Notes: generated from the letters alone by a model not told the origin. 64,000 bases of DNA from Thermoanaerobaculia bacterium (GCA_038244715.1 JBBRTE010000016.1:13212-77211); one strand, 5' to 3'. Shown: positions 1 to 11,888, numbered from the stretch's first letter. Numbers and translations are program-made.

Positions 1-1651
1 CAGTGATCGTGATCGGCGCCGAGGTCGCTGCCGCGGCGAGCAAACCGATGTTGCATGTGACCGGACCCGTACCGGCGCATCCCGTCTGCGACACGAATGT
101 GGCGCCGGACGGGATTGCGTCCGTGACGATGACGTTATTGACGGTCGCTCCCGTGAAGTTCGTAACCTTGAGTGTGTACGTGACCGTGTCGCCGAGCTTG
201 ATGACATCGGTGGAGGCGGTCTTCGTGATGCCAACAGAGACTTCCTTGAGTGGGACGGCAACCATTGCCCATCTCTGTGCGCCCGCCACCGGCGTCCACG
301 ACATCGTGGTGTTCGGGTAGCCGCGGGATCCGCTGCCTGCGCCGGAGAAGTTCGTGATCGGGGCGGCGGCGTTGGTTACGATCGCATAGCGACTGTCCTG
401 CCGGGCACCTGCGGTCAGCGCCGTGTTGGTGTTGTAACCGATGACGTCCACGACATAGTCGGAGGCCAGGTTCGTAACGGCGACCGACGGCGTTGCCGAG
501 TTCGCACTGTTCGTGACGACGGCTCCGGTAGATACGTTCTGATCCACACCGCTGAACGTTTGCGCACCGGCCACGACGTTCACATTCGCGCCTGCGTTAC
601 TCACCGAGACTGTGATTTGATGGATACCGGCCGCCGGCGCCGCGAGTCCCCACAATTCAGTCCTCACTGCCGTTCCGCTGTCGATGCTGCCCAGCAACGT
701 CATCAGAACATTCGGACCGCCGCCTTCGGTGCCGTACCGGACGCTGTTGACGACCGAAGCACCGGCGCTTTTGTCGATCGACACACCGACGACGAGGTAA
801 CGGTTCGCTGCACTCGTCGTGTTGTGATTCCAGGAGCCGACAACGGGGTTTCCCGCGGATGCGAACGTAGCGCTGCTGGCGGCGTCGAACAGAATCTGCG
901 GCGTCGCTGATACGAGCGGCACAGCGACAGCTGCCCACGCCTGCGCCCCACCACCGGCGGTCCAGGTCATCGTCGTGTTCGCAAAACCGGTCTTGCTGCT
1001 TCCGGCACCCGAGGCAGCCGGGGCGGCGCTTTGAACGTTGAAGCCGGCCTGGTTCGCACCAGGCGCCAACGCGACATTCGCGTTGTAGGCAACGGCATCC
1101 ACAACGTAGTCGAAGGCTGAGTTCGCCAAAACGACCGTAGGCGTCAACGACGTAGCGGTCGCCGCCACTGCGGTTCCAGTGGCGGCAGTCTGAAGGACGT
1201 TCGTGAAGGATCGCGCACCCGCAATGACCGACGTGTTCACGAGCCCGGCATTGGCAACGGTGACCGTGATGAGGTGCGTTCCCGCCGCTGGATTGGCGAG
1301 GCCCCAGATCTCCGCCCGCTCGATCGTTCCGTTGGTCGCCGATCCCAGGAGCGCCATCGCCTGATTGGGTCCGCCCGCCTCGGTGCCATAGACAACACTG
1401 GTGACCGTTTGCGCGCCGCCGTTCTTGTCGATGGCAACGCTCACAGCCACGTAGGGCTTCTTGACGAGACTGACCGTGTGATTCCAGGAGGTCGTGATCG
1501 GATTCGCCGCGGAGGCCGTGGCCGTAGCAGCGTTCGACGCGGCGTCGAACACCACCTGCGCATGGGCACGGGACGACAACGTAAGAACGGCGACGAAGCA
1601 TACGATGGCTCGCACGCTCGTCCTTCTGACGGCGGTAGTAGTAGTCTTCAC
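1..1651 (-). CDS. secreted tandem-repeat protein with C-terminal DUF11/CARDB-like domain; GTG start at 1651, 3' end runs off window
   Basis: Manual minus-strand translation in frame 3k+2 gives a signal peptide VKTTTTAVRRTSVRAIVCFVAVLTLSSRAHA, then two ~230-aa internal repeats (QVVFDAASNA..SWNH..YGTEAGGPN..WGLANPAAGTHLITVTVANAG and QILFDAASSA..SWNH..YGTEGGGPN..WGLAAPAAGIHQITVSVSNAG), then VGITKTASTDVIKLGDTVTYTLKVTNFTGATVNNVIVTDAIP, which is typical of DUF11. AAGGGG sits 7 nt upstream of the GTG. Absent from the ORF track because there is no in-window stop; the listed 657..1733 ORF is an out-of-frame artefact of this gene. Confidence 0.6.
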   Translation of the reverse strand, partial: MKTTTTAVRRTSVRAIVCFVAVLTLSSRAHAQVVFDAASNAATATASAANPITTSWNHTVSLVKKPYVAVSVAIDKNGGAQTVTSVVYGTEAGGPNQAMALLGSATNGTIERAEIWGLANPAAGTHLITVTVANAGLVNTSVIAGARSFTNVLQTAATGTAVAATATSLTPTVVLANSAFDYVVDAVAYNANVALAPGANQAGFNVQSAAPAASGAGSSKTGFANTTMTWTAGGGAQAWAAVAVPLVSATPQILFDAASSATFASAGNPVVGSWNHNTTSAANRYLVVGVSIDKSAGASVVNSVRYGTEGGGPNVLMTLLGSIDSGTAVRTELWGLAAPAAGIHQITVSVSNAGANVNVVAGAQTFSGVDQNVSTGAVVTNSANSATPSVAVTNLASDYVVDVIGYNTNTALTAGARQDSRYAIVTNAAAPITNFSGAGSGSRGYPNTTMSWTPVAGAQRWAMVAVPLKEVSVGITKTASTDVIKLGDTVTYTLKVTNFTGATVNNVIVTDAIPSGATFVSQTGCAGTGPVTCNIGLLAAAATSAPITIT

Positions 1652-1810: not shown

Positions 1811-2227
1811 CTACCGAAGCATTCCCCGCAACCGCCGGACGAGCACGGCAGCGAGTCGGACGATTGTCGCTGATTTGAGGCCAGATTTACTAATATTTGT
1901 AGTATCGCCCGCCGAAAGTACGCGTCCCAGAATCTCGGACAGGCGGACCGGCGCATCGCAACGGAGAGCGTTGTCTCCCCGCGTGACGATCATCGATCCC
2001 GACCGGCGAACCAACCGGTGTGCGGTCAATCCCCGAGCCGCCTTCGTGAGAACGACGTCTCCGGGGCGCAGCGACGAAGGTTCACAAGGCTCGACCCGAA
2101 TGTAGTCGCCGTCGTGTATCGCCGGATGCATGCTGTCACCCGTGACACGAAAGCGCGCCGCCCGGCGTGAGGCCAGAAGATGCCGGAGTGTCGGCTCGAA
2201 CTCGCTCACGCGGCACTCCGAACGCAA
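1811..2227 (-). CDS. S24 (LexA/UmuD-type) peptidase domain protein, possible leader peptidase
   Basis: VTGDSMHPAIHDGDYIRV...PGDVVL.K....HRLV carries the Ser nucleophile motif GDSM and a downstream Lys of S24 Ser-Lys dyad peptidases. No DNA-binding domain. Overlaps the upstream kinase-like gene by 22 nt. Confidence 0.6.
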   Translation of the reverse strand: MRSECRVSEFEPTLRHLLASRRAARFRVTGDSMHPAIHDGDYIRVEPCEPSSLRPGDVVLTKAARGLTAHRLVRRSGSMIVTRGDNALRCDAPVRLSEILGRVLSAGDTTNISKSGLKSATIVRLAAVLVRRLRGMLR

Positions 2228-3087
2228 TCGATGACGCTGCGATCAGGGAGGAAGCGGAGCGCACGCACGGGGAGGTCCTGGACGATCCGATCCAGACACT
2301 CGAGCGTGAATGCAACGGCAATCGCGTCGTAAAACGGAGGAAAGGTGCAACCGAACAGAGCAGCAGCGGCGCGAGCGGGGGGCAACGTCACCAGTTCGGT
2401 CTGCGTGGCCTGAACGAGAAGATGAATTGCTCCGAGCGGCGCGGAGCGCGGCGAGGAAAGCTCCGCCTCGCCGTGCCAGGGAGTTCCGTACATCCGCCAC
2501 TCGCCCTCCACGAAACGGACGATGACGCGGTCGTCGCTCACGATCTCGTAGTCGCCATCGGCAAGCCAGACGCGCGCGGTGGTCGTCTTTCCTGCCCCGG
2601 ACTGGCCGACGAACAGCTGTCCGCGGCCATCGCGGTCGATGATCCCGCAGCCGTGCAACTCCACTCCCCGGCCGCGGCCGAGGAGATGGGCGACGACCAC
2701 TTCATCCAGCGGATAGTCGAGAGCGTGCATTTCGGGGTTCGCGTCGAATACCTCGCGCCTTACGAGAATCCGTCCCGTTCGGAGCTCGCGATCGAAGAAC
2801 GCCGCTTTGTAGGGCACGTCGCCGAAGAGGTCACTCCAGCAGTCGATGCGGAAGCCTCCGGCGTCGTCGTATGCGCGCCACACCGCGGCCGATTCGAAGA
2901 GCATCCGGCCCGTCGGTGGCAGCGGACCATTCATCGGCTCGACGGTGATGTTCAGGTCGGGTGCGGCCGAGAGCACCGCGAAGCGGCGGACGGTCTCCGA
3001 CAGGGGGCGGCGAAGGGACTCGTCTGTGTATCCGATCCCGATCGCGATCTCAGCGATGCGGATGAACTCGCGCGGGGACACGTTCAT
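2206..3087 (-). CDS. HPr kinase/phosphorylase C-terminal-like P-loop kinase (RiPP tailoring kinase-like)
   Basis: LHGCGIIDRDGRGQLFVGQSGAGKTTTARVWLADGDYEIVSDDRVIV matches the HprK C-terminal P-loop region (GxSGxGKS/T followed by DDR). The ATG lies 17 nt after the stop of the small peptide ORF. Confidence 0.7.
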   Translation of the reverse strand: MNVSPREFIRIAEIAIGIGYTDESLRRPLSETVRRFAVLSAAPDLNITVEPMNGPLPPTGRMLFESAAVWRAYDDAGGFRIDCWSDLFGDVPYKAAFFDRELRTGRILVRREVFDANPEMHALDYPLDEVVVAHLLGRGRGVELHGCGIIDRDGRGQLFVGQSGAGKTTTARVWLADGDYEIVSDDRVIVRFVEGEWRMYGTPWHGEAELSSPRSAPLGAIHLLVQATQTELVTLPPARAAAALFGCTFPPFYDAIAVAFTLECLDRIVQDLPVRALRFLPDRSVIDCVRSAA

Positions 3088-3103
3088 TCAGGAGAAGAAT
3101 GCC

Positions 3104-3274
3104 TCACGACCCTGGGACGCTGCAGCGGGAGCTGCCGCGACAACCGAGACTGGAGGGACCCGACGCTGCGTTCGTCTTGCAAAAGCCGAGGACTGCTTCA
3201 TCCGGGCGAAGCGGAAAGCGCTTCGCTTCCGGCTTCTCGTACTGCTTTCGGTTGCTGCTCTCCTGCTTCTCCAT
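3104..3274 (-). CDS. candidate RiPP precursor peptide, 56 aa (MEKQESSNRKQYEKPEAKRFPLRPDEAVLGFCKTNAASGPSSLGCRGSSRCSVPGS)
   Basis: ATG at 3274 is preceded by AAGGGGAG, overlapping the rSAM TAA stop. The leader-like N-terminus is hydrophilic and K/E-rich; the C-terminal region has 3 Cys and a terminal Ser. The ORF exactly fills the gap between the rSAM stop (3285) and the kinase start (3087). Confidence 0.45.
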   Translation of the reverse strand: MEKQESSNRKQYEKPEAKRFPLRPDEAVLGFCKTNAASGPSSLGCRGSSRCSVPGS

Positions 3275-3284
3275 CGTTCTCCCC

Positions 3285-4565
3285 TTACCGAGCGACCGCG
3301 CTCGAGACCGAACAACTCCCACAACCACCCGTCCCGCATCCAGTCGCAGCGGGGTGAGCGGGTTCGTACGGAATAGCCGCGATCCGTTCTGCCTCACCAG
3401 ACTTCAGCGCTTCGGCGGCAACGCGTACGAGTTCGTGTAGTGAACCACCGACGCAGTACTCGCACTCGCCATGAACGCGCACCGGAATGTCGAGCGTCTC
3501 CGCCCGCAGATGCGCGACCTGACAGAGAAAGTCGACTGGCGCCTCAGCGTCGCCGTTCTCCAGCTCCCCGTTCGCGGCGCACATGCCACACATCGACTTG
3601 AGTCCGCACTCGTTGCACTTCGTGGGCCGGGTGATCGCGCGCTTCCGCACGTTGAGCAGGTACTCCTCCCAGCCTTCGCGGAAGTTGCCATCGCGGACGT
3701 TGTATTTGTCGACGTGGGAAAGCACGCAGATGGAGAGGTCACCGTACGGATCGATCGCGAACGAGTTGATCCCGCCGCCGCACTCGTAGACCTGCCGCTC
3801 CTCACCCTCGGCCAGCGTTGGCGATCCATGATCGCGGGCGAGTCGGCGCCATTCGGAAACCCGCTCCAGATTGTCGAGGTCGAGCTCGACGATCTCGGAC
3901 GGACGCAACCGCACCGCCAGCGGACTGGCCGAACAATCGATGCGCGGGTTGATCATCGCGTCAAAGGTGAATTCGACGCCGCGATCGGCCGCCATCTGCC
4001 GCATCAGCGGAATCTCGTGCTTGTTGATCGAGAGCGCCACCGTCTTCAGCTTCAGCGGCAGATTGCGCTCGAGCAGCAGGTCGATGCCGCGCAGACAGCG
4101 GTCGTAGGAGCCCGGGATGCCCGTCAGCGCTTCGTACGTTTCCCTCGTCCCGCCATAGAGCGTGATCTCGATCGTGAACGGCCGCAGGTCGGCGAGGAAG
4201 TCGGCGATCTTCTCCGTGATCAACGTCCCGTTTGTAAAGAGTGTGATCAGGAAGCCCTTCTGCTTCGCGTAGGCATAGATGTCGAGGAAGTCACGGCGCG
4301 CGAAGATCTCGCCGCCGGAGAACAGCAGCCAGAGACATCCGAGATCCGCCAGCTCGTCCAGCAGCCGCTTGTGCTCGTCCAGAGTCAGCTCGCGCGCACG
4401 GGCCACGAAGTCGCTCATCGGCAGGTTGTTGTAGCAGTGCTTGCACTCCAGCGGGCAGCGGTTCGTCACTTCGATGGTGCCGTTGACCGGAATCCGCCGC
4501 GGCTCAGCCCGGCCGTGAACCAGGATGCTGAAGTCGGTATAACTTCCCGTTTCGATCGCGCTCAT
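3285..4565 (-). CDS. radical SAM / SPASM-domain peptide-modifying maturase
   Basis: CPLECKHCY (CxxxCxxC) near the N-terminus. SPASM-type auxiliary cluster cysteines at CGGGINSFAIDPYGDLSIC and CNECGLKSMCGMC. Extra Cys-rich tail CEYCVGG...GCGTGGCGSCS. Start overlaps the PqqD-like stop by 4 nt. Confidence 0.85.
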   Translation of the reverse strand: MSAIETGSYTDFSILVHGRAEPRRIPVNGTIEVTNRCPLECKHCYNNLPMSDFVARARELTLDEHKRLLDELADLGCLWLLFSGGEIFARRDFLDIYAYAKQKGFLITLFTNGTLITEKIADFLADLRPFTIEITLYGGTRETYEALTGIPGSYDRCLRGIDLLLERNLPLKLKTVALSINKHEIPLMRQMAADRGVEFTFDAMINPRIDCSASPLAVRLRPSEIVELDLDNLERVSEWRRLARDHGSPTLAEGEERQVYECGGGINSFAIDPYGDLSICVLSHVDKYNVRDGNFREGWEEYLLNVRKRAITRPTKCNECGLKSMCGMCAANGELENGDAEAPVDFLCQVAHLRAETLDIPVRVHGECEYCVGGSLHELVRVAAEALKSGEAERIAAIPYEPAHPAATGCGTGGCGSCSVSSAVAR

Positions 4566-4864
4566 TTGGTCTTCTCGACTCCGTGCTCAACCAGATCCGC
4601 CGACGTCAGCGAGGTGAGCAGCTCCTCGAGATCAGCCCTTGCGACGTCGGCTTGGACATCGTACTCGCTACAGATGACTGTGATGATGGAATCGACGTCC
4701 CGAACGCCGTCGAACAGCTGCCAGATCCTGGCCGCCACCGCGGTGAGCACGAACACGGAGTCGAGCTCCCCGACGTGATTCCGGATGGGCACGAGGATGC
4801 TCTCGCCCCCTACCTGCCGCAGAGCAAACTCCCCACGGTGCGCAAACACTCGGCTGTCCGTCAT
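4562..4864 (-). CDS. PqqD-like RiPP recognition element (RRE) protein
   Basis: 100 aa; ILVPIRNHVGELDSVFVLTAVAARIWQLFDG...SIITVICSEYDV..ADLEELLTSL has the typical PqqD family pattern. Translationally coupled to the rSAM gene. Confidence 0.75.
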   Translation of the reverse strand: MTDSRVFAHRGEFALRQVGGESILVPIRNHVGELDSVFVLTAVAARIWQLFDGVRDVDSIITVICSEYDVQADVARADLEELLTSLTSADLVEHGVEKTK

Positions 4865-4960: not shown

Positions 4961-6076
4961 TTGACCCGGCGTCTACAATCATTCCAGATGAGCTCGAATC
5001 CATTTCCCATCGCGCCGCCTCCCGCCGAGGGTGAGGAAGCCCTGCCGCCGATCCCGAAACCGCGTCCCTCGCTCGAGGAGATCGCGGCGTGGGCGATCTC
5101 CGCCGCCCTCCTTGTTTATGTGATGCTCTGGCACCTCGTGCCGGCCGTCGTCGCCGGGCTGGTCCTCTATCTTCTTCTCGACCGACTTTCGCGCTCGTTT
5201 TCAAAGCGGATGCCGGGCACAGCCGCCCGCCCGCTGGCGCTGATCCTCGTGACGCTCGTCGGCGGCGGCGTGATCTTCGGCGTGACCGCGCTCATGGTCT
5301 CGTTCCTTCGCCACCACGTCGACAACATCCCCGCCATCATGACGAAGATGGCCGACATCCTTCAGTCGACGCGCGCGTGGCTCGGCGGCTACGGTGAGGA
5401 CCTCATCCCCGAGGTCATGACGGATGCCGAGACGATCAAGGTCGCGCTGGCCGCGTGGCTGAAGGAACATGCCGAGGCGCTGAAGCTCGCCGGGAGTACC
5501 GTCAGCATCGGTCTCGTGCACGTCGTCATGGGCATGCTGTTAGCCGTCATGGTCTTCTTCCGCCACGTGACCCACCATCCGAACCGTGTGCCCGGCACGT
5601 TGAGCGAAGCGCTGGAGGCGAAGGTCGAACGCTTCACGCACTCCTTCGCGCAGATCGCCAGCGCGCAGGTGAAGATCTCGCTGCTGAACACGGCGCTGAC
5701 CGCGCTCTATCTCCTCGTCGCGCTTCCGCTCTTCGGACGCCACATCCCGTTCGCGACGACGATCGTCTTCGTGACGTTCGTCTGCGGCCTCATCCCGGTT
5801 CTCGGCAATCTCATTTCCAACACCGTCATCGTCATCCTCTCTCTCGGCATCTCCCCCGGCACGGCCATCGCGTCGCTGTTCTTTCTCGTGATCGTGCACA
5901 AGCTCGAGTACCTGACGAACTCGCGCATCGTCGGCGGCGAGACCGATTCGCAGGCATGGGAGATCCTGCTGGCAATCCTCATCGGCGAGACTGCGTTCGG
6001 CGTCAGCGGCGTGGTGATGGCACCGATCATCTACGCGTTCATCAAGCGCGAGTTGCGCGACCACGGCCTTGTTTAG
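4961..6076 (+). CDS. AI-2E family transporter (PerM/TqsA-like); start is TTG 4961 or more likely ATG 4988
   Basis: Multi-TM protein with the characteristic AI-2E C-terminal region (GLIPVLGNLISN..., GETAFGVSGVVMAPI). Divergent from the RiPP-like operon. Confidence 0.8.
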   Translation: MTRRLQSFQMSSNPFPIAPPPAEGEEALPPIPKPRPSLEEIAAWAISAALLVYVMLWHLVPAVVAGLVLYLLLDRLSRSFSKRMPGTAARPLALILVTLVGGGVIFGVTALMVSFLRHHVDNIPAIMTKMADILQSTRAWLGGYGEDLIPEVMTDAETIKVALAAWLKEHAEALKLAGSTVSIGLVHVVMGMLLAVMVFFRHVTHHPNRVPGTLSEALEAKVERFTHSFAQIASAQVKISLLNTALTALYLLVALPLFGRHIPFATTIVFVTFVCGLIPVLGNLISNTVIVILSLGISPGTAIASLFFLVIVHKLEYLTNSRIVGGETDSQAWEILLAILIGETAFGVSGVVMAPIIYAFIKRELRDHGLV

Positions 6077-6082
6077 CGGCGA

Positions 6083-6892
6083 TTAGCGAGCGCTCTCGCG
6101 AACGATCCGGAAGCCGATGCTGAAACCGCGCAGGCGCGGCTCGTGCGTGTAGCGCAACGCGCTCCGCGCACTGTCCGCACCGAAGTACCAGCTCCCGCCC
6201 CGGATCACCCGATACGGACTCCCACACGCCTGCCGAGGATCCGTGACTGTCCTCGCGGCGTACGGACAATACTCATCCGCGCACCACTCCCAGACGTTGC
6301 CGTGCATGTCGTACAACCCCCAGGCATTGGGAGGAAACGACGCCACCGGCGTCGTCGTCCCGCGAAACGCATCGCCCGCGGCTGCCTGTCCCGCAACCCG
6401 TGCGTCGAAGTTCGCATCCGCCGGCAATAGGTGATCCCCGCGGTCATACGCCGTCGCCGAACCCGCCCTGCACGCATACTCCCACTCCGCCTCGGTCGGC
6501 AGCCGGTAACGAGGACCGCGCGACGCATTCAGCCGCCGCAGAAACTCCTGCACCTCAAACCACGTGACACTCTCGACGGGCAGCCGCGGGCCAGGAAAAT
6601 GACTCGGACGATTCCCAATCACCCGTGCCCACTCTTCCTGCGTCACCTCGGTCGCCGACAGGTAAAACGGCCGCGTGAGAATGACGTGATGCCGCGTCTC
6701 ATCCGCCCGATGTCCCGCCTCCCCGCCCGGTGATCCCATCTCGAATGCGCCCGCCGGAATGAGCACCAGCCGCACGCCGCTGCGCGGCTCGACGATCGCT
6801 TTCTCCACCCTGCGGCACGACGCGATCAGCAGAAACGCGAACGCGATCACGCCGAACGATCGACCGGTCAACCGCGCCATACGCCCGATCAT
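6083..6892 (-). CDS. formylglycine-generating enzyme (FGE)/sulfatase-modifying factor domain protein, signal/lipoprotein N-terminus
   Basis: LPTEAEWEYACRAG, HGNVWEWC and RVIRGGSW are motifs of the FGE-sulfatase (SUMF1) domain. Confidence 0.8.
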   Translation of the reverse strand: MIGRMARLTGRSFGVIAFAFLLIASCRRVEKAIVEPRSGVRLVLIPAGAFEMGSPGGEAGHRADETRHHVILTRPFYLSATEVTQEEWARVIGNRPSHFPGPRLPVESVTWFEVQEFLRRLNASRGPRYRLPTEAEWEYACRAGSATAYDRGDHLLPADANFDARVAGQAAAGDAFRGTTTPVASFPPNAWGLYDMHGNVWEWCADEYCPYAARTVTDPRQACGSPYRVIRGGSWYFGADSARSALRYTHEPRLRGFSIGFRIVRESAR

Positions 6893-6986
6893 ACGTGTTG
6901 ACCTGCATCACAGCGGAGCACCCCTGGATGACATATCTTCCGCAGTGTTCTCTCCCACCCAACAATTCAACCGGAGGTTATTGAGC

Positions 6987-7850
6987 ATGTATCGATTTCG
7001 CTCGTCCCTTGCCCTCGTGATCCTGATGGCGTCCGTTCCGCTGCTGGCCGATGGCGGAAAGGCCGATGGTTCTCTCACCGCGAACGGGAAGAAATTCGCG
7101 CTCACCCATGCCTACGCACGGAGGCACAAGAGCCCGTTCGACAAGACCAAGACCGTGGTGGAAGTGATCATCATCGACAAGGAGATCTCGGCCGAGGCAC
7201 AGTCGGATGAGTTCGAGTTCATGCGGGCGCAGGACAAACAGGAGCTGAGCGGTTTCACCGCCACCATCGACGACGACAAGGCCATCATCAGCGCCACCGT
7301 CTTCAGCCCTGCGTTCAAGAAGATGCATCAGTTCTCCGCCGTCGGCATGCAGAAGCTCGACCTGAAATCGATCACCGCCGCACGCGTGGCCGGCTCGGTC
7401 TCCATGGCCAAGCCCGACGACTTCTTCGACGAGAAGTACCAGTACAACGCCACGTTCGACGTCCCCATCGCCAAGCCCACCGGACCACCCGCTCCGCCGG
7501 TGTTGAAGGGCACTCCCCTTCCGGCCGGCGGCGGCGAGCCGGGCAAGGCCTACATGGCCTATCTCAAGCTCATGGCCGGCGGCGACATGAAGAAATTCCT
7601 CAACGCGGTGACCGCGGAGCGCGCCAAAGAGGCGTCCTCCGATCCCGATTTCAAGAAACTCTTCCCCCTGATCCAGGCGATGCAGGCAAAGAACATCAAG
7701 GTTACGAGCGGCGCCGTCGATGGCAACGATGCCACCCTCCTCGCCACCGGTAAAGACGGCGACGACGTCTCCAACGGCAAGATCACGATGGCCAAAGAAA
7801 GCGGCCAGTGGAAAGTGGCAAAAGAGGAGTGGAAAACCCAACACGAGTAA
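6987..7850 (+). CDS. secreted hypothetical protein
   Basis: ATG 6987 with GGAGG 9 nt upstream. Signal peptide MYRFRSSLALVILMASVPLLA; lysine-rich soluble domain. The listed ORF start at 6759 overlaps the FGE gene and is unlikely. Confidence 0.6.
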   Translation: MYRFRSSLALVILMASVPLLADGGKADGSLTANGKKFALTHAYARRHKSPFDKTKTVVEVIIIDKEISAEAQSDEFEFMRAQDKQELSGFTATIDDDKAIISATVFSPAFKKMHQFSAVGMQKLDLKSITAARVAGSVSMAKPDDFFDEKYQYNATFDVPIAKPTGPPAPPVLKGTPLPAGGGEPGKAYMAYLKLMAGGDMKKFLNAVTAERAKEASSDPDFKKLFPLIQAMQAKNIKVTSGAVDGNDATLLATGKDGDDVSNGKITMAKESGQWKVAKEEWKTQHE

Positions 7851-7947
7851 CAGCAAGCGTGTGGCGCCGGCGGCCTCGCCGGCGTCTTAACATCCATTCA
7901 AACGGAGCAGTGACCGGCGCGCGGTCACTGCCTCCTGCCTGCGCTCA

Positions 7948-8532
7948 TCAACCCCGCGCCGTCTCGATCTTCGCAGCCAGCACGAAATCCGCGCGCGTCA
8001 GCCCGTCGACCTTGTGCGTCCATACGGTGATGCCCACCTTCCCCCACGCCAGCGCGATATCGGGGTGATGTCCTTCCCCCTCCGCGATCGCGCCGATACG
8101 ATTCGTGAACGCCAGCGCCTGCGCGAAATCGGGGAACGCGAACTCCTTCTGCAGATGATGCTCCTCCACGATCGTCCAGCCGCCACCGAGGAGCGCGCCG
8201 AGCCGGGTGAGCTCGTCGCCGTGGAGCGCAGGAACGCCGCCGCTACACGGGATGCACGTCTCGTTCGCCAGCGAGGTCTGCGTGTCGTCCTTGCGGATCC
8301 ACGCCGCCAGCTGGTCTGCCGTCACGCGATGCCGGAACGCCTCGGCGCCATCGATGTAGATGACCGGCACGTCGTCCGTGAACCGCGCACGGAGCAGCGG
8401 ATCGTCGTCGATGTCCACGAGCGTGATGGTGAGAGGGAGATGGTGGAGGACCACGGCCGCGCGCACAGCCGCCTCGGCGGCATCGCATAGCGTGCAGTCA
8501 CGCCGCGTGTAAAACGTCACTTCATGGCTCAT
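7948..8532 (-). CDS. glutaredoxin-like (CxxC) domain fused to pterin-4a-carbinolamine dehydratase (PCD/DCoH) domain
   Basis: N-terminus MSHEVTFYTRRDCTLCDAA... is glutaredoxin-like. C-terminus ...EGEGHHPDIALAWGKVGITVWTHKV is the PCD signature. Start chosen at the internal Met because the longer ORF overlaps the divergent SDR gene. Confidence 0.6.
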   Translation of the reverse strand: MSHEVTFYTRRDCTLCDAAEAAVRAAVVLHHLPLTITLVDIDDDPLLRARFTDDVPVIYIDGAEAFRHRVTADQLAAWIRKDDTQTSLANETCIPCSGGVPALHGDELTRLGALLGGGWTIVEEHHLQKEFAFPDFAQALAFTNRIGAIAEGEGHHPDIALAWGKVGITVWTHKVDGLTRADFVLAAKIETARG

Positions 8533-8562
8533 CGAATAGACTCCGTCGCCGAGGATACCTTG

Positions 8563-9336
8563 ATGGACGTGAATCCAAATACGACACTGGACCTTCGCGG
8601 AAAGATCGTGGTGATCACGGGCGGCTCGCGCGGGATCGGCGCCGAGACGGCGAAGCGGATGGCCGAGGCAGGGGCGCGGGTCGTGGTGAACTACCACGGG
8701 AGCGAGGAAGCGGCGCAGGCGGTGGTCAACGGCATCGGCGAGCGGGCCGTGGCGATCCGAGCGGATGTGGCTGATCCCGAGGGAGTGAAGAGGCTGATCG
8801 ACGAGGTGGTGAGGCGTTTCGAACGGATCGACGTGCTGGTCAACAACGCGGCGATGTTCGAATACAACCCGTTCGACGGCGACGACTACGCGGCCTGGCA
8901 GGCCGGGTGGAGACGAACGTTCGACCTGAACGTGTTCGCTGCGGCGAACGCGGCGTGGCTGGCGATGCAGTCGATGCGGCGAGCTGGCGGGGGCAGGATC
9001 ATCAACGTAGCGTCGCGCGCTGCCTGGCGCGGCGAGACGGAGTTTGCGGACTACGGAGCCTCAAAAGCAGCGCTGGTAAACCTGACGCGCTCGATCGCCC
9101 GCGCGTGCGCGAAAGACAACATCGTCGCGAGCTGCGTCGCCCCTGGGTTCATCGAAACGGAAATGGCGAAACCAGAGCTGGAAGCGCATCGCGAAGAGAT
9201 CCTCAATCAGATCCCGCTGCGAAGGGTGGGGAGCGTGGGGGATGTCGCTGCCGTAATCCTCTTCCTCGCGTCGCCAATGGCGGATTACCTGAACGGGGTC
9301 ACGATCGATATCAATGGAGGGTCGTGGTTCCAGTAA
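8563..9336 (+). CDS. SDR family oxidoreductase (3-oxoacyl-ACP reductase-like)
   Basis: GKIVVITGGSRGIGAE (TGxxxGxG), NNAA and Y..ASKAA catalytic motifs. Confidence 0.85.
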   Translation: MDVNPNTTLDLRGKIVVITGGSRGIGAETAKRMAEAGARVVVNYHGSEEAAQAVVNGIGERAVAIRADVADPEGVKRLIDEVVRRFERIDVLVNNAAMFEYNPFDGDDYAAWQAGWRRTFDLNVFAAANAAWLAMQSMRRAGGGRIINVASRAAWRGETEFADYGASKAALVNLTRSIARACAKDNIVASCVAPGFIETEMAKPELEAHREEILNQIPLRRVGSVGDVAAVILFLASPMADYLNGVTIDINGGSWFQ

Positions 9337-9631
9337 CAGGATCCTCATCGGAACGCCGATGGAGATTCGCGGGAATCGGCGCAATGATCATAGGCTTCAA
9401 AGCCTCATTGGCGTGTCTACATCGACCGAGGAAGCGACTCTCCGCTCCTTCTCTGCGCCATTGCTTCACATCCATCGAGATCGCCTGTTGTCTGTTTGAG
9501 TAAGCGAGTGCGCCCGCCGCCTGCTATCGGTTGCAGCGGACACGCTGCCGCAACCTGGCGCGTGGCTGTGCGATACTTCGGCGCGCGGGATGGTGTCGCT
9601 GAACCGAAGGGCGTCGCCGCACCCGATCATG

Positions 9632-10150
9632 ACCCTCGAACCCGCGCTACCTGAGCTTGGGGAGCCACCTGTCCTATCGCTCGGTGCCTTCCGGCTCCGA
9701 CCGCTCCCGCCTGACGATGCTATCCAGTGGCCGGCGTATCTCTCCGATCCTCGCGTTACGCTTCACACCAGCTGGGGTTCGACGGATCTCGCCACTATCG
9801 ATACCCTTGTAAAACGTCTTCTCGCTGACTACGCCACCAAAGCCATCATGGCGATGGGCCATCGCGCGAGACGTGGACGATTGCCTTGTGGGTGTCTGCG
9901 GCTTCTCCACGTGGTCAACGGTCCATCGCGCGGCCGAGCTCGTCTACGATCTCTCGCGCGAGTGCCATTGCACTTAGTTCTTGAATTCGCGCTGGCTAAC
10001 TATGCGATGGTCCTGACGGGCCGGCTCCGAAGGGGACCGACCGCATCCGGGTCACATGGCCGGCGTCGACCAGGGCCGTCTCGAACTCAAGGGAGGAGGC
10101 AATGCGTAGAAGGCGGCATCCGCGCCGATGGACCAGGTAACGCGCTACGA
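9632..10150 (+). pseudogene. GNAT family N-acetyltransferase (RimJ/RimL-like), disrupted by at least two frameshifts
   Basis: Frame 1 gives FRLRPLPPDDAIQWPAYLSDPRVT... Continuation of GNAT motifs is only found in other frames: RWAIARDVDDCLVGVCGFSTWSTVHRAAELVYDLSRE, then PLHLVLEFALANYAM, then GRLELKGG. Confidence 0.4.
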
Positions 10151-10319
10151 GAATAGCCTGCGTACAGCAACGTCGTGAAGGGCGTGCGCAACGCGGAAAG
10201 CCGAGGGATTCCGAAAGGCGACCGGGGGCCGGAGCTCTACTGGAAAGAAGGGCGCGCCCATGTCTTACTGCGTGACTTTATGGCTGCTGCCATCGCCTTC
10301 CGGAACGCAGAGACGCACA

Positions 10320-11888
10320 TCAAAACCCCATATCCCGATGCTCGCCGAAGGTTTTCTTCAGCGTAGCCACGATCTCTCCAACCGTGCACTGCTGGCGCAC
10401 GCACTCCACGATGAACGGCATCAGGTTGCGCCCATCCCCGGCTGCGGCGTTCAGCGCCGCCCGCGCCGATTCCACGTCGCCCGTCCTGCCCGCGCGAAAC
10501 GCGTTGAGCCGCGCGACCTGATCGCGCTCGACGCGTTCGTCGATCTCCATGATCGGCAGCGTGGCCGAACCGTCGTCGACGAACTCGTTCACGCCCACGA
10601 CGATGGCCCGCTTCTCTTCGAGCGCGCGTTGCGCCTGATACGCCGACTCCCCGATCTCGTGCTGGATGAATCCCGACTCGATGGCGGCGCGCGCCCCGCC
10701 CATGGCGTCGATGCGCTCGATCAGCGCGCGCGCCTCGCGGGCGATGTCGAGCGTGCGCGCTTCGATCTCGTACGAACCTGCCAGCGGATCGGCGAAGTGC
10801 GTGACGCCGGTCTCGTGCGCGAGCACCTGCTGCGTCCGCAATGCGATCTTCGCCGACTCCTCCGTCGGAAGCGCCAGCGCCTCATCGCGCGAGTTCGTGT
10901 GCAGCGACTGGCAGCCGCCCAGAACCGCGGCCATGGCCTGGTAGGCCACGCGCACGACGTTGTTCTCCGGCTGTTGTGCCGTCAGGGTGGATCCGGCTGT
11001 CTGCGCGTGGAAACGGAGAGCCAGCGACTTCGGATCCTTCGGCGCATAGCGTTCGCGCATCAGCTGCGCCCACAGTTTGCGTGCCGCCCGGAACTTGGCT
11101 ACCTCTTCCAGAAAATCGTTGTGGGCATTGAAGAAAAAGGAGATCCGCGGAGCAAAGGAATCGATGCTCAGACCGCGGTCGACGGCCGCCTGGACATACT
11201 GCAGGCCGTTCGCCAGCGTGAACGCGACTTCCTGCACGGCGGTCGATCCCGCCTCGCGGATGTGGTAGCCGGAGACGGAGATCGTGTTCCAGCGCGGGAC
11301 TTCCTTCGCGCAGAACTCGAAGATATCCGTCACGATGCGCAGCGAGGGCGCCGGGGGGAAGATGTAGGTTCCTCGCGCCGAATATTCCTTGAGAATGTCG
11401 TTCTGAATCGTGCCGGAGAGCGCCGACCAGGCGATCCCCCGCCGCTCCGCCACCACCAGCAGCAGGGCCAGGAGAATGGAGGCGGGCGCGTTGATCGTCA
11501 TCGAGATCGACACGCGGTCGAGCGGGATGCTGTCGAACAGAAGCTCCACGTCGTCGATCGAGTCGATGGCCACGCCGACGTTCCCGACTTCCCCCCGGGC
11601 GCGTGGGTCGTCCGAGTCCATCCCGATCTGCGTAGGGAGATCGAATGCCACTGAGAGCCCGGTCGTTCCGCGCTCCAGCAGATAGCGATAACGCTTGTTT
11701 GACTCCGCGGCGGTCGAAAACCCGGCGTACTGCCGCATCGTCCACAACTTCCCCCGGTACATCGATGCCTGCGGCCCGCGGGTGTACGGAAACCGGCCCG
11801 GCTCTCCCAAGTCGGCATCGGGATTGAAGTCACGTTCTGAGAGATCGTTCGCGTCGAAAAACAACTTCTCGTCGGCCATCGGAGCCAT
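10320..11888 (-). CDS. methylmalonyl-CoA mutase family, catalytic (substrate-binding) subunit without fused B12-binding domain
   Basis: 522 aa; FPYTRG, RQYAGF and [12 protein letters not shown] are typical of MCM/ICM large subunits. Ends before the C-terminal cobalamin-binding domain. Confidence 0.85.

Follow-up and report, generated by a model that had tools for sequence, protein, structure and literature searches.

Do five adjacent genes in a Thermoanaerobaculia genome make up a pathway for a modified peptide, and if so, of what kind? The locus lies in a stretch of 64,000 nucleotides (in what follows, the window), where the minus strand carries, in this order, genes for a PqqD protein, a radical SAM (rSAM) enzyme, a protein of 56 residues, a kinase-like protein and a peptidase. 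A preliminary description, made from the window itself, had read them as a peptide-maturation operon of no described class. ORF calls and translation recovered all five of the co-directional reading frames it listed (Table 1), including a 4-nt overlap in which the ATG of the rSAM gene lies over the PqqD stop codon (ATGA). The arrangement is far from chance: about 80 genomes keep the gene order, even where the kinase-like protein has fallen to 40% identity, and tblastn found the five-gene order intact in essentially all of 80 related loci with enough sequence, a range that runs from Thermoanaerobaculia to Acidobacteriota of Acidiferrales type and takes in a few other MAGs. This comparison of neighbourhoods bears out the proposed co-conservation, with the kinase gene retained and the peptidase missing in one sufficiently covered locus. 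Every related locus whose sequence reaches the position of the small ORF has it, so that clusters lacking it, which had been named beforehand as evidence against the reading, were not found, nor was anything else that the preliminary description had listed against itself. The cassette, defined by its gene content, order and conservation and by the folds and catalytic motifs described below, is real and very widespread in soil Acidobacteriota. Its most likely function is the modification of a small three-Cys peptide by the rSAM enzyme, the kinase-like enzyme and a signal-peptidase-like protease.

Table 1. Features of the cassette and its immediate neighbours, in window coordinates
Feature	Position	Strand	Length	Remarks
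Giant secreted repeat protein, 5' part	1..1651	-		runs off the window; GTG at 1651, GGGGAA upstream
Soluble SEC11/SipW-like (S26B-type) Ser-His-Asp peptidase domain (predicted)	1811..2227	-		TTG start
ScmC-family P-loop kinase-like protein, PEPCK/HprK fold	2206..3087	-	293 aa
Precursor peptide gene	3104..3274	-	56 aa	MEKQESSNRKQYEKPEAKRFPLRPDEAVLGFCKTNAASGPSSLGCRGSSRCSVPGS
Radical SAM/SPASM enzyme	3285..4565	-	426 aa	PF04055; extra conserved Cys
Discrete PqqD-family RiPP recognition element (RRE)	4562..4864	-	100 aa	Pfam PF05402
AI-2E family transporter	4961..6076	+		PF01594, E 2e-20; divergently transcribed

The small ORF is a real gene. It starts 10 nt past the rSAM stop, and the strong ribosome-binding site claimed for it is indeed there (GGGGAG, 5 nt 5' of the ATG). 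All of its 78 distinct orthologues occupy the equivalent position in the cassette, and its metagenomic relatives form at least 5,425 clusters at 90% identity, every one of them annotated as hypothetical and none with a Pfam domain. Within the leader block, differences at codon positions 1, 2 and 3 number 4021, 3617 and 12087, and this third-position excess indicates that the ORF is under purifying selection. The orthologues follow the pattern Y-x-x-P-x-[VILMA], L-R-P-E-E-A-V-L-G-x-C-K, G-P and C-x5-C-x3-G-S at the C-terminus, with Y12, P15, L22, E26, A27, C32, K33, G39, C45, C51 and S56 invariant; in the leader motif (Y12-x-x-P15-x-[VILMA]) the final residue of the window copy is Ala. Among the 78 orthologues, 48 have their Cys spaced at 12, 5 and 5-to-end, and the residues between the core Cys vary freely. 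The C-terminal Ser on which the preliminary description had remarked is invariant in all 78 genomic orthologues, a terminal GS ends each of 120 metagenomic cluster representatives among those listed, and this Ser is the sole invariant hydroxyl residue of the precursor, which fits the lasso-peptide precedent of C-terminal Ser phosphorylation (PMC6993621, PMC12639078). The gene occurs in a single copy, and its conservation across classes is very strong. Such conservation is unusually high for an antibiotic-type RiPP and counts against a RiPP pathway.

The proteins encoded upstream are of the kinds that recognise and modify peptides. The PqqD protein exceeds the gathering score of its Pfam family, as had been expected of it (E 1.1e-14, 54.9 bits, cut-off 23.4); in NCBIfam it comes closest to the PqqD chaperones of lasso and GeoRSP systems, without reaching the cut-off of any. 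In 75 of 85 loci its gene immediately precedes the rSAM gene, the exceptions being mostly truncated by contig ends. The rSAM enzyme matches PF04055 (E 1e-21), and the ten Cys that mark an rSAM/SPASM maturase, namely CxxxCxxC (C37/41/44) and seven of SPASM type (C262, C280, C317, C320, C326, C329 and C348), are invariant across 71 orthologues. The same alignment shows a further invariant CxxC (C368/371) and a tail Cx4Cx2C (C410/415/418) conserved at 87-97%. The claim of SPASM-type clusters thus stands on its Cys motifs, although the Pfam SPASM model itself scores 13.8 bits against a cut-off of 21.5. No NCBIfam family reaches its cut-off for this enzyme, the best being AhbD (123 bits, cut-off 500) and MftC (99 bits, cut-off 265). 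Top PDB sequence matches are PqqE and SkfB, and Foldseek comparison of an AF2 model (pLDDT 75.6) returned PqqE, MoaA, SkfB, SuiB, anSME and CteB, so that in the predicted structure its neighbours are peptide maturases, SPASM and twitch enzymes.

What can be said of the kinase-like protein, whose ORF follows the peptide stop after a spacer of 16 nt? It had been called HprK-like. The PEPCK/HprK fold and the lasso-kinase motif support this, but the family is Pfam ScmC (PF27840) and not HprK proper: PF27840 has a precomputed match in the identical protein of one related locus (L005) and in 119 of 120 homologues among those listed. HPr kinase/phosphorylase proper was rejected (TIGR00679, 17.6 bits against a cut-off of 240), and the PDB profile match to HprK/P covers 55 residues only (E 0.006). 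The features of the HprK/PEPCK superfamily are all present (fold, P-loop GxxGxGK[ST] and acidic DD pair), and the residues H145...G161-x2-G164-x-G166-K167-T168...D185-D186 are invariant or nearly so in the orthologue alignment, at a spacing nearly equal to that of lasso kinases, where the DD pair is required for activity (PMC6993621, PMC10368454). Kinases of this superfamily phosphorylate the C-terminal Ser on the precursors of paeninodin and pseudomycoidin (PMC12639078, PMC6993621). The target of BsfK is Ser3, hence HprK-like RiPP kinases are not always directed at a C-terminal Ser (PMC10368454).

The peptidase required a larger correction. It passes the Pfam S24 threshold (35.2 bits, cut-off 23.3), and S24-like HMM matches occur in 82 of 85 loci, but the LexA/UmuD-type Ser-Lys dyad proposed for it does not hold: there is no conserved Lys (K62 of the window copy varies), and the invariant residues are the Ser of G-x-S-M-x-P, the His of H-R, the Asp of G-D and a second Asp six residues on. 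Human SEC11C and SEC11A are its top PDB matches (E 7e-8 to 2e-7), and the Ser (SM-x-P), His (HR) and Asp (GD) motifs of the family line up with theirs. Judged by its sequence, the protein is a SEC11/SipW-like S26B peptidase of Ser-His-Asp type. Its best NCBIfam model is TIGR02228, archaeal-type signal peptidase I (43.2 bits, cut-off 51.85). It shares with the S26B signal peptidases the motifs named above, followed by the second invariant Asp, and differs from them in having no membrane anchor, in scoring below the TIGR02228 cut-off and in being fused or coupled to the kinase or to a giant protein. No hydrophobic N-terminal or transmembrane segment was found in its translation, which makes a cytoplasmic location plausible. 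There is also a weak match to the model of the NiSOD maturation protease (TIGR02754), which is soluble and S26-like, takes off an N-terminal propeptide and so offers a precedent for such an enzyme. As the start of the gene, a GTG at 2209 that overlaps the kinase stop as GTGA is more likely than the TTG. The protein may simply be a leader peptidase, but this is only one of the two readings under consideration. In a 2023 review of the leader proteases of RiPP pathways, the terms S24, S26 and signal peptidase do not occur (PMC10885120).

The other reading comes from what lies downstream. The operon extends past 1811, where the preliminary description had ended it, into a conserved partner that it missed, and the cassette is usually found in the company of this gene for a giant cell-surface protease. 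The part within the window comprises a signal peptide, two units of about 230 aa and the first DUF11/CLIPPER domain (PF01345 DUF11, E 3.9e-12), and the orthologues carry a C-terminal Peptidase_C25 domain. Of the 56 loci for which 7.5 kb or more of downstream sequence is available, 39 encode a C25 domain there, in the orientation of the cassette, and in two others the giant gene extends past the flank. In about 30 genomes an S24-like domain, a signal/TM segment, repeats and C25 are fused in frame, and because of these fusions the peptidase may serve the giant protein rather than the peptide.

To which known systems is the cassette related? The nearest catalogued one is SynChlorMet (ScmC TIGR04249, ScmD TIGR04248, ScmE TIGR04250, ScmF TIGR04251), with which it has in common an HprK-like P-loop protein (ScmC), a PqqD-family protein and an rSAM/SPASM enzyme. 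This trio being catalogued, the set is not wholly of no described class; the claim retains its force in that the proteins fail all SynChlorMet equivalog cut-offs. ScmC is the best NCBIfam match of the kinase-like protein (32.2 bits against 125, E 6.8e-8, residues 138-247), the PqqD protein scores 20.6 bits with ScmD (cut-off 100), and the rSAM enzyme 83.9 with ScmE and 50.8 with ScmF (cut-off 400 each); equivalog membership was rejected, all four models being missed by a wide margin. SynChlorMet also has two rSAM genes where the present cassette has one, and lacks the defined three-Cys precursor, S26B-like peptidase and C25 giant protein. A literature search for a published function of SynChlorMet found none, nor was a paper describing the present cassette found.

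The phosphorylated lasso pathways (PadeK of paeninodin; PsmK/PsmN of pseudomycoidin; Bradymonas BsfK/BsfB1/BsfN) share with the cassette a PqqD-type RRE, a YxxPxL-type leader, a precursor-acting HprK-superfamily kinase (H-G-G-GKS-DD) and a C-terminal Ser, and the leader motif, discrete PqqD RRE and terminal Ser that mark this subclass are all found here. The differences lie in the core, which has three Cys and an rSAM/SPASM enzyme, and in the extra N-terminal beta domain of the ScmC-family kinase. The Asn-synthetase-like cyclase and the B2 transglutaminase-type protease are missing, and membership was rejected; as had been noted for the window, neither domain is encoded in the five ORFs or their neighbours, there or in three related loci (L001, L003 and L079). 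Sactipeptide and ranthipeptide pathways (AlbA, SkfB, CteB, PapB) resemble the cassette in three respects: the maturase is an rSAM/SPASM enzyme carrying auxiliary clusters, recognition depends on an RRE, and the gene beside that of the enzyme encodes a core that contains Cys. SkfB and CteB are structural neighbours. In the maturases of these pathways the RRE is an N-terminal fusion, whereas here it is a separate protein, and the cassette has in addition the extra CxxC and Cys tail, the kinase, the S26B peptidase and the C25 partner; the rSAM enzyme falls far below the cut-offs of the AlbA, PapB and StsB models. Across the profile search, all five proteins miss the trusted cut-off of every NCBIfam model, and the chemistry is therefore not transferable by orthology.

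We hold with moderate confidence that the cassette is an RRE-guided rSAM/SPASM RiPP-type maturation operon of a so far uncharacterised family, acting along the following route. The earlier reading thus stands as to the RiPP-type pathway, the RRE, the rSAM/SPASM enzyme and the Cys-containing precursor, and gives way as to the type of peptidase, the end of the operon and its uncatalogued status. In the route that we infer, from crosslinks and phosphorylation through cleavage site and export to the link with the C25 protein, the discrete PqqD protein would bind the lasso-like Y-x-x-P-x-[VILMA] motif of the leader (in lasso leaders, YxxPxL lies at -17 to -12; PMC10368454) and hand the precursor to the rSAM/SPASM enzyme, which would modify the core of about 26 residues around its three invariant Cys, most likely by thioether-type crosslinks. 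The ScmC-type P-loop kinase would spend ATP on the RRE-bound precursor, its target most likely being the invariant C-terminal Ser, as for PadeK and PsmK in lasso peptides; the RRE protein BsfB1 speeds up phosphorylation by its kinase (PMC10368454). The soluble SEC11-like Ser-His-Asp peptidase would then take off the leader by a cytoplasmic cut, placed within the invariant EEAVLG block or immediately beyond it, and the mature product may act with, or be handled by, the co-transcribed C25-ending giant surface protein.

That last step can be turned around. The whole cassette could be an accessory module for the giant surface protein, whose N-terminus the SEC11-like domain trims in the manner of SipW, with the modified peptide not a free product but a partner of C25, be it substrate, covalent tag, inhibitor, pro-factor or anchor. 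On this account one would expect a C25-ending giant gene immediately after the cassette and in its orientation, as in 39-41 of 56 informative loci, from several distant lineages; one would also expect the constancy of the C25 end where the body changes (LamG in L079, DUF11 repeats in L047), the approximately 30 in-frame fusions and the position of signal peptidases as the nearest relatives of the peptidase. However, at least 15 loci, which form a subclade within Thermoanaerobaculia, have the full set of five genes, the peptidase included, with no C25 protein within 8 kb. The peptidase moreover has no N-terminal TM segment, is elsewhere joined to the cytoplasmic kinase (P0361, P0371 and P0457) and, where fused to the giant protein, precedes a positive-inside signal segment, so that its expected location is the cytoplasmic side, where a signal peptidase would be misplaced. 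We regard the accessory-module account as unlikely, if deserving of attention.

Less probable still are two accounts that alter the product or the chemistry. The peptide might, like the PQQ and mycofactocin precursors, give rise to a conserved redox cofactor or a small molecule that binds metal, and not to a secreted bioactive peptide: PqqE is the nearest solved structure to the rSAM enzyme, and the mycofactocin maturase model covers that enzyme from end to end (99 bits); a single-copy gene, very strongly conserved across classes, encodes the precursor, whose three invariant Cys could ligate a metal, and in Thermoanaerobaculia the cassette has redox genes of housekeeping type around it (Glrx/pterin-4a, AhpC, a short-chain dehydrogenase). 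Yet the scores reject membership of either pathway (PqqE 88.5 against 381 bits, MftC 99.3 against 265), and the precursor motif is unrelated to PqqA or MftA, with neither a PqqA-like E-x3-Y nor an MftA-like C-terminal VY. Outside Thermoanaerobaculia there is no conserved cofactor-dependent dehydrogenase, the residues between the core Cys vary freely, and known cofactor pathways have no kinase, peptidase and giant surface protease. It is similarly improbable that the ScmC-like protein is no peptide kinase, acting instead as an ATP-dependent scaffold or activating enzyme (for example, Ser phosphorylation leading to dehydroalanine and Cys addition) or on a non-peptide substrate, as PEPCK does. 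Its H...G-x2-G-x-GK[ST]...DD motif and spacing are those of proven lasso-pathway peptide kinases (PMC10368454), a lyase gene is absent, and it is tightly coupled to a PqqD RRE and to a precursor with the terminal Ser as only invariant hydroxyl.

Some lineages may extend the route that we favour. NTP_transf_5-type nucleotidyltransferases are frequent in phosphorylated lasso pathways (PMC6993621, PMC10368454, PMC12639078), and an NTP_transf_5 gene, absent from the window, lies near the cassette in 23 loci overall, Thermoanaerobaculia among them; in L068 and L079 it is the immediate neighbour of the kinase or the PqqD gene, and in L072 it follows the kinase gene at a distance of about 5.5 kb. Where it is adjacent, the phosphate might be decorated further, as by PsmN. 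It counts against the route that the L068 lineage does without a PqqD or peptidase gene nearby, and that the window contains neither a dedicated exporter nor an NTP_transf_5 gene. In 33 loci, all in Thermoanaerobaculia, an AI-2E transporter gene lies no more than about 3 kb from the cassette, on either side of it; it is a weak candidate for an exporter, and its proximity may be plain synteny.

All five minus-strand ORFs of the preliminary description were found where it had placed them (see table), and third-position GC tracks the five reading frames. The ATG of the radical SAM (rSAM) gene overlaps the PqqD stop as ATGA, and the S24-like ORF more plausibly begins at its GTG, which overlaps the kinase-like stop as GTGA, than at the TTG upstream. 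The proposed domain assignments fared unevenly against Pfam: PqqD, Radical_SAM and Peptidase_S24 scored above threshold, but the SPASM and Hpr_kinase_C matches were weak. None of the five cassette proteins reached an NCBIfam trusted cut-off. The window contains no second copy of any cassette component, no tRNA and no Rfam family; within its intergenic regions no match to a sigma-70-like promoter was obtained, and terminator-like sites occur there at chance level.

Genes of the cassette and the giant gene downstream of it
Feature	Coordinates	Strand	Remarks
PqqD	4562-4864	minus	Pfam E 1e-14
Radical SAM enzyme	3285-4565	minus	Pfam Radical_SAM E 1e-21
Small ORF, 56 aa	3104-3274	minus	GGGGAG box ahead; 10 nt past rSAM stop
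P-loop kinase-like protein, 293 aa	2206-3087	minus	16-nt gap after small ORF
S24-like ORF	ends 1811; start TTG 2227 or GTG 2209	minus	Peptidase_S24 35 bits
Giant secreted protein, 5' part	1-1651, beyond window start	minus	signal peptide, repeats, DUF11/CLIPPER domain

Both the rSAM enzyme and the kinase-like protein have numerous homologues; where an organism name is attached, it is that of a Thermoanaerobaculia or other Acidobacteriota MAG. When the kinase-like profile was scanned against one genome per species, at least 560 encoding genomes were recovered; the best 80 loci, which were retained, derive from Thermoanaerobaculia, Acidiferrales/'Acidoferrum' and single MAGs labelled Cybelea, Betaproteobacteria and Syntrophaceae. 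As judged by tblastn and HMM searches, the order PqqD, rSAM, small ORF, kinase-like, S24-like is present wherever the contig is long enough, and is maintained to kinase-like protein identities as low as 40%. A cluster lacking the small ORF, or one with its kinase or peptidase gene out of synteny, would have counted against a common operon; with the five-gene order kept across the related loci, neither is seen among them. The kinase-like superfamily comprises 12,556, 6,691 and 1,193 clusters (50% identity) at E <= 1e-3, 1e-10 and 1e-30, respectively. Sources are mostly soil Acidobacteriota, a dominant yet poorly understood phylum in which the cassette is abundant, and in the source databases consulted no cassette protein has a functional name.

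The small ORF is genuine and encodes a precursor. A single pattern, k-x-Y-E-k-P-x-[VILMA]-x-[RQ]-x-x-L-R-P-E-E-A-V-L-G-x-C-K-x5-G-P-x4-C-x5-C-x3-G-S-stop, is common to 78 distinct orthologues, none of which varies at the three Cys, K33, G39 or the terminal Ser; the last Cys always stands five residues before the end. Nucleotide differences in the leader block fall mainly at the third codon position (12087, versus 4021 and 3617 at the other two). A profile search retrieved 5,425 clusters at 90% identity, the named ones being 'hypothetical' and 0 carrying a Pfam domain; among the best 120 of the 5,425, 120/120 end in GS and fit the pattern. A longer, 97-aa GTG-start version of the ORF (3104-3397) was rejected, because the ATG at 3274, where conservation begins, has its own ribosome-binding site and orthologues are mostly 54-63 aa. 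The Y-x-x-P-x-[VILMA] element of the precursor is the lasso-leader motif YxxPxL, which occupies positions -17 to -12 of lasso leaders and is recognised there by B1 proteins of PqqD type (PMC10368454). Applying the lasso spacing to the precursor would put the leader-core boundary near residues 28-31, within or immediately following the invariant EEAVLG block. So regular a precursor should make heterologous reconstitution straightforward.

In 71 orthologues of the rSAM enzyme, CxxxCxxC, seven SPASM-type Cys and a further CxxC (C368/C371) are invariant, and a Cx4Cx2C in the tail is 87-97% conserved. The sequence and fold neighbours of the enzyme are PqqE, SkfB, SuiB, anSME, CteB and MoaA, which places it among the peptide-modifying SPASM/twitch enzymes, a placement that does not fix its chemistry. 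PqqE, MftC, AlbA and PapB themselves were each ruled out as its identity on score cut-offs. The tail (window 3285-3350, GCGTGGCGSCSVSS) is similar in composition to the Gly/Ser/Cys-rich peptide core (3104-3170, GCRGSSRCSVPGS) and could supply additional Fe-S ligands or imitate the substrate; pLDDT is < 50 across tail residues 403-426 of the AF2 model, which is hence uninformative on an extra cluster site. For an rSAM/SPASM clade with extra Fe-S ligands, the cassette gives a well-defined, testable substrate.

Among orthologues of the kinase-like protein, H145, G161, G166, K167, D185 and D186 are invariant and G164 is nearly so, while position 168 (T168) is occupied by Thr or Ser across the 13 aligned sequences. 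This motif reproduces, at nearly equal spacing, that of proven lasso-peptide kinases: BsfK has H148-G163-G166-G168-K169-S170-D186-D187, and the DD pair is needed for the activity of PsmK (PMC10368454, PMC6993621). The identical protein in L005, the related locus with the same sequence as the window, and its homologues have a precomputed match to Pfam ScmC (PF27840), a family for whose function the cassette offers a first handle. HprK/P proper was ruled out on score cut-off. Natural fusions of kinase and peptidase exist in other genomes (P0361, 395 aa; P0371, 463 aa; P0457, 847 aa), and the last of these is so long that it may extend into the giant protein.

The peptidase had been described as a LexA/UmuD-type Ser-Lys enzyme, a classification that does not hold. 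No conserved Lys is found across the orthologues aligned; the invariant residues are instead G-x-S-M-x-P, H-R, and the Asp of G-D with a second Asp six residues on. Among solved structures its closest relatives are human SEC11C and SEC11A, with which the Ser, His and Asp motifs align. Since both the invariant residues and the nearest structures are those of SEC11, the protein is an S26B-type Ser-His-Asp domain and not of LexA/UmuD type; it is without the N-terminal anchor typical of true signal peptidases. Archaeal SPase I was ruled out as its family on score cut-off. The words S24, S26 and signal peptidase are absent from a 2023 review of RiPP leader proteases, and the peptidase is a candidate new type of leader peptidase – if true, RiPP biosynthesis would have its first one of S26B type.

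The best-supported reading of the cassette is an RRE-guided RiPP-type pathway (RRE, RiPP recognition element), all of whose chemical steps we infer. In such a pathway, PqqD would bind the YxxPx[VILMA] leader, the rSAM/SPASM enzyme would modify the three-Cys core, and the ScmC-type kinase would phosphorylate the precursor, most probably on the terminal Ser, the only invariant hydroxyl residue; the soluble SEC11-like peptidase would then remove the leader. The nearest catalogued system is SynChlorMet (the ScmC/ScmD/ScmE/ScmF cassette), but all four equivalog cut-offs were missed by a wide margin. Phosphorylated lasso pathways have in common with the cassette an RRE, the leader motif, the kinase motif, a terminal Ser and often a nucleotidyltransferase, whereas it has neither the lasso cyclase nor the B2 protease by which those pathways are defined. 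That the ScmC-like protein, with its lasso-kinase motif, is something other than a peptide kinase strikes us as very improbable. Sactipeptide and ranthipeptide systems employ the same type of rSAM enzyme. The idea that the peptide is a cofactor precursor seems to us very doubtful. A full-text literature search found no paper describing the cassette. Returning to the RiPP-type pathway, its rSAM/RRE basis is of a known kind; the accessory set is unusual and absent from the papers found, and the distribution of the cassette is very large and unannotated.

A further question is the relationship of this pathway to the giant secreted protein encoded downstream. Because the gene runs off the window start, the C25 end of its product is taken solely from orthologues, which are 1,500-3,400 aa long and have Peptidase_C25 at the end. 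A C25-ending giant gene lies downstream on the same strand in 39/56 loci with enough flank, and 2 more run past the flank; in L079, another related locus, the body differs (LamG/DUF2341) and the C25 end is the same. In approximately 30 Acidiferrales-type genomes an S26B-like domain is fused in frame to the giant protein; the peptidase comes first, then a positively charged signal/TM segment, the repeats and C25. Both the fusions and the conservation of a C25 neighbour suggest that the cassette is functionally tied to the giant surface protein – an unexpected genetic association of a RiPP-type pathway with a giant surface protease. One Thermoanaerobaculia subclade is without the giant gene and retains all five cassette genes, and, on balance, that the cassette simply serves the giant surface protein appears unlikely. 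A broader proposal, which we put forward only tentatively, is a phylum-wide Acidobacteriota RiPP, rSAM-crosslinked, phosphorylated on the C-terminal Ser by the ScmC-type kinase (in some lineages further decorated) and released by a cytoplasmic SEC11-type peptidase, as obligate partner of a giant isopeptide-stabilised surface stalk bearing C25; isopeptide bonds have been predicted in CLIPPER domains (PMC12617251). The C25 of that stalk could be gingipain/PorU-like, and the peptide its substrate, a covalently attached tag or a regulator. If true, RiPP chemistry would be linked to biogenesis or control of a cell-surface protease.

In the window, the giant protein starts with the signal peptide VKTTTTAVRRTSVRAIVCFVAVLTLSSRAHA, and two homologous units of ~230 aa (QVVFDAASNA..., PQILFDAASSA...) stand ahead of the first DUF11/CLIPPER domain. 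Between the peptidase stop and the giant gene is a 160-nt gap (1652-1810) with a weak terminator-like hairpin (1755-1742, minus strand) and a T run behind it, a kind of site that is as frequent in this region as expected by chance. In L003 (8679-10739, minus strand) and 20 other Thermoanaerobaculia loci without the C25 giant, a convergent gene for a 686-aa NosD-like beta-helix protein lies directly downstream, followed in this subclade by an AI-2E transporter.

A nucleotidyltransferase gene (NTP_transf_5) is found near the cassette in 23 loci in all. It lies directly after the kinase gene in L068, ~5.5 kb downstream of it in L072 and 3-8 kb upstream of it in many Thermoanaerobaculia; in L079 it directly precedes PqqD, with an ABC exporter and peptidase gene just upstream, and it is also near the cassette in L077. 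The putative NTP transferase PsmN, encoded with an HprK-type kinase, is needed for the hexose on the C-terminal Ser phosphate of pseudomycoidin (PMC6993621). A search across the 64-kb window found no NTP_transf_5 gene. In the sister genomes L007, L013 and L016, the region upstream of the cassette has, beyond adh_short, an NTP_transf_5 and an AhpC gene; the syntenic site in the window (~9400-10300) has only an odd 188-aa ORF (9590-10156, plus strand), whose C-terminal half is of low complexity and rich in Arg/Gly and which may represent a remnant or frameshifted gene. L068 has a reduced cassette (6373-11005) of rSAM, peptide, kinase and NTP_transf_5, with PqqD and peptidase not nearby, and it stops at an opposite-strand gene whose translation reads as transposase-like.

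Other neighbours – AhpC, adh_short, Glrx/pterin-4a, a response regulator and the NosD-like beta-helix protein – show conservation confined to Thermoanaerobaculia and were therefore taken as synteny, not as parts of the cassette. An FGE-sulfatase (formylglycine-generating enzyme-like) gene at 6083-6892 (minus strand), between an AI-2E transporter and a 287-aa conserved unknown, looks like a local insertion; apart from L005, tblastn picked it up in just 3 of the fetched loci, including L009 and L014, ~3.8-7.6 kb upstream of the kinase gene. At 7948-8697 (minus strand), a glutaredoxin-like domain (DUF836) is fused to pterin-4a-carbinolamine dehydratase, and in L003 the pterin-4a domain occurs alone.
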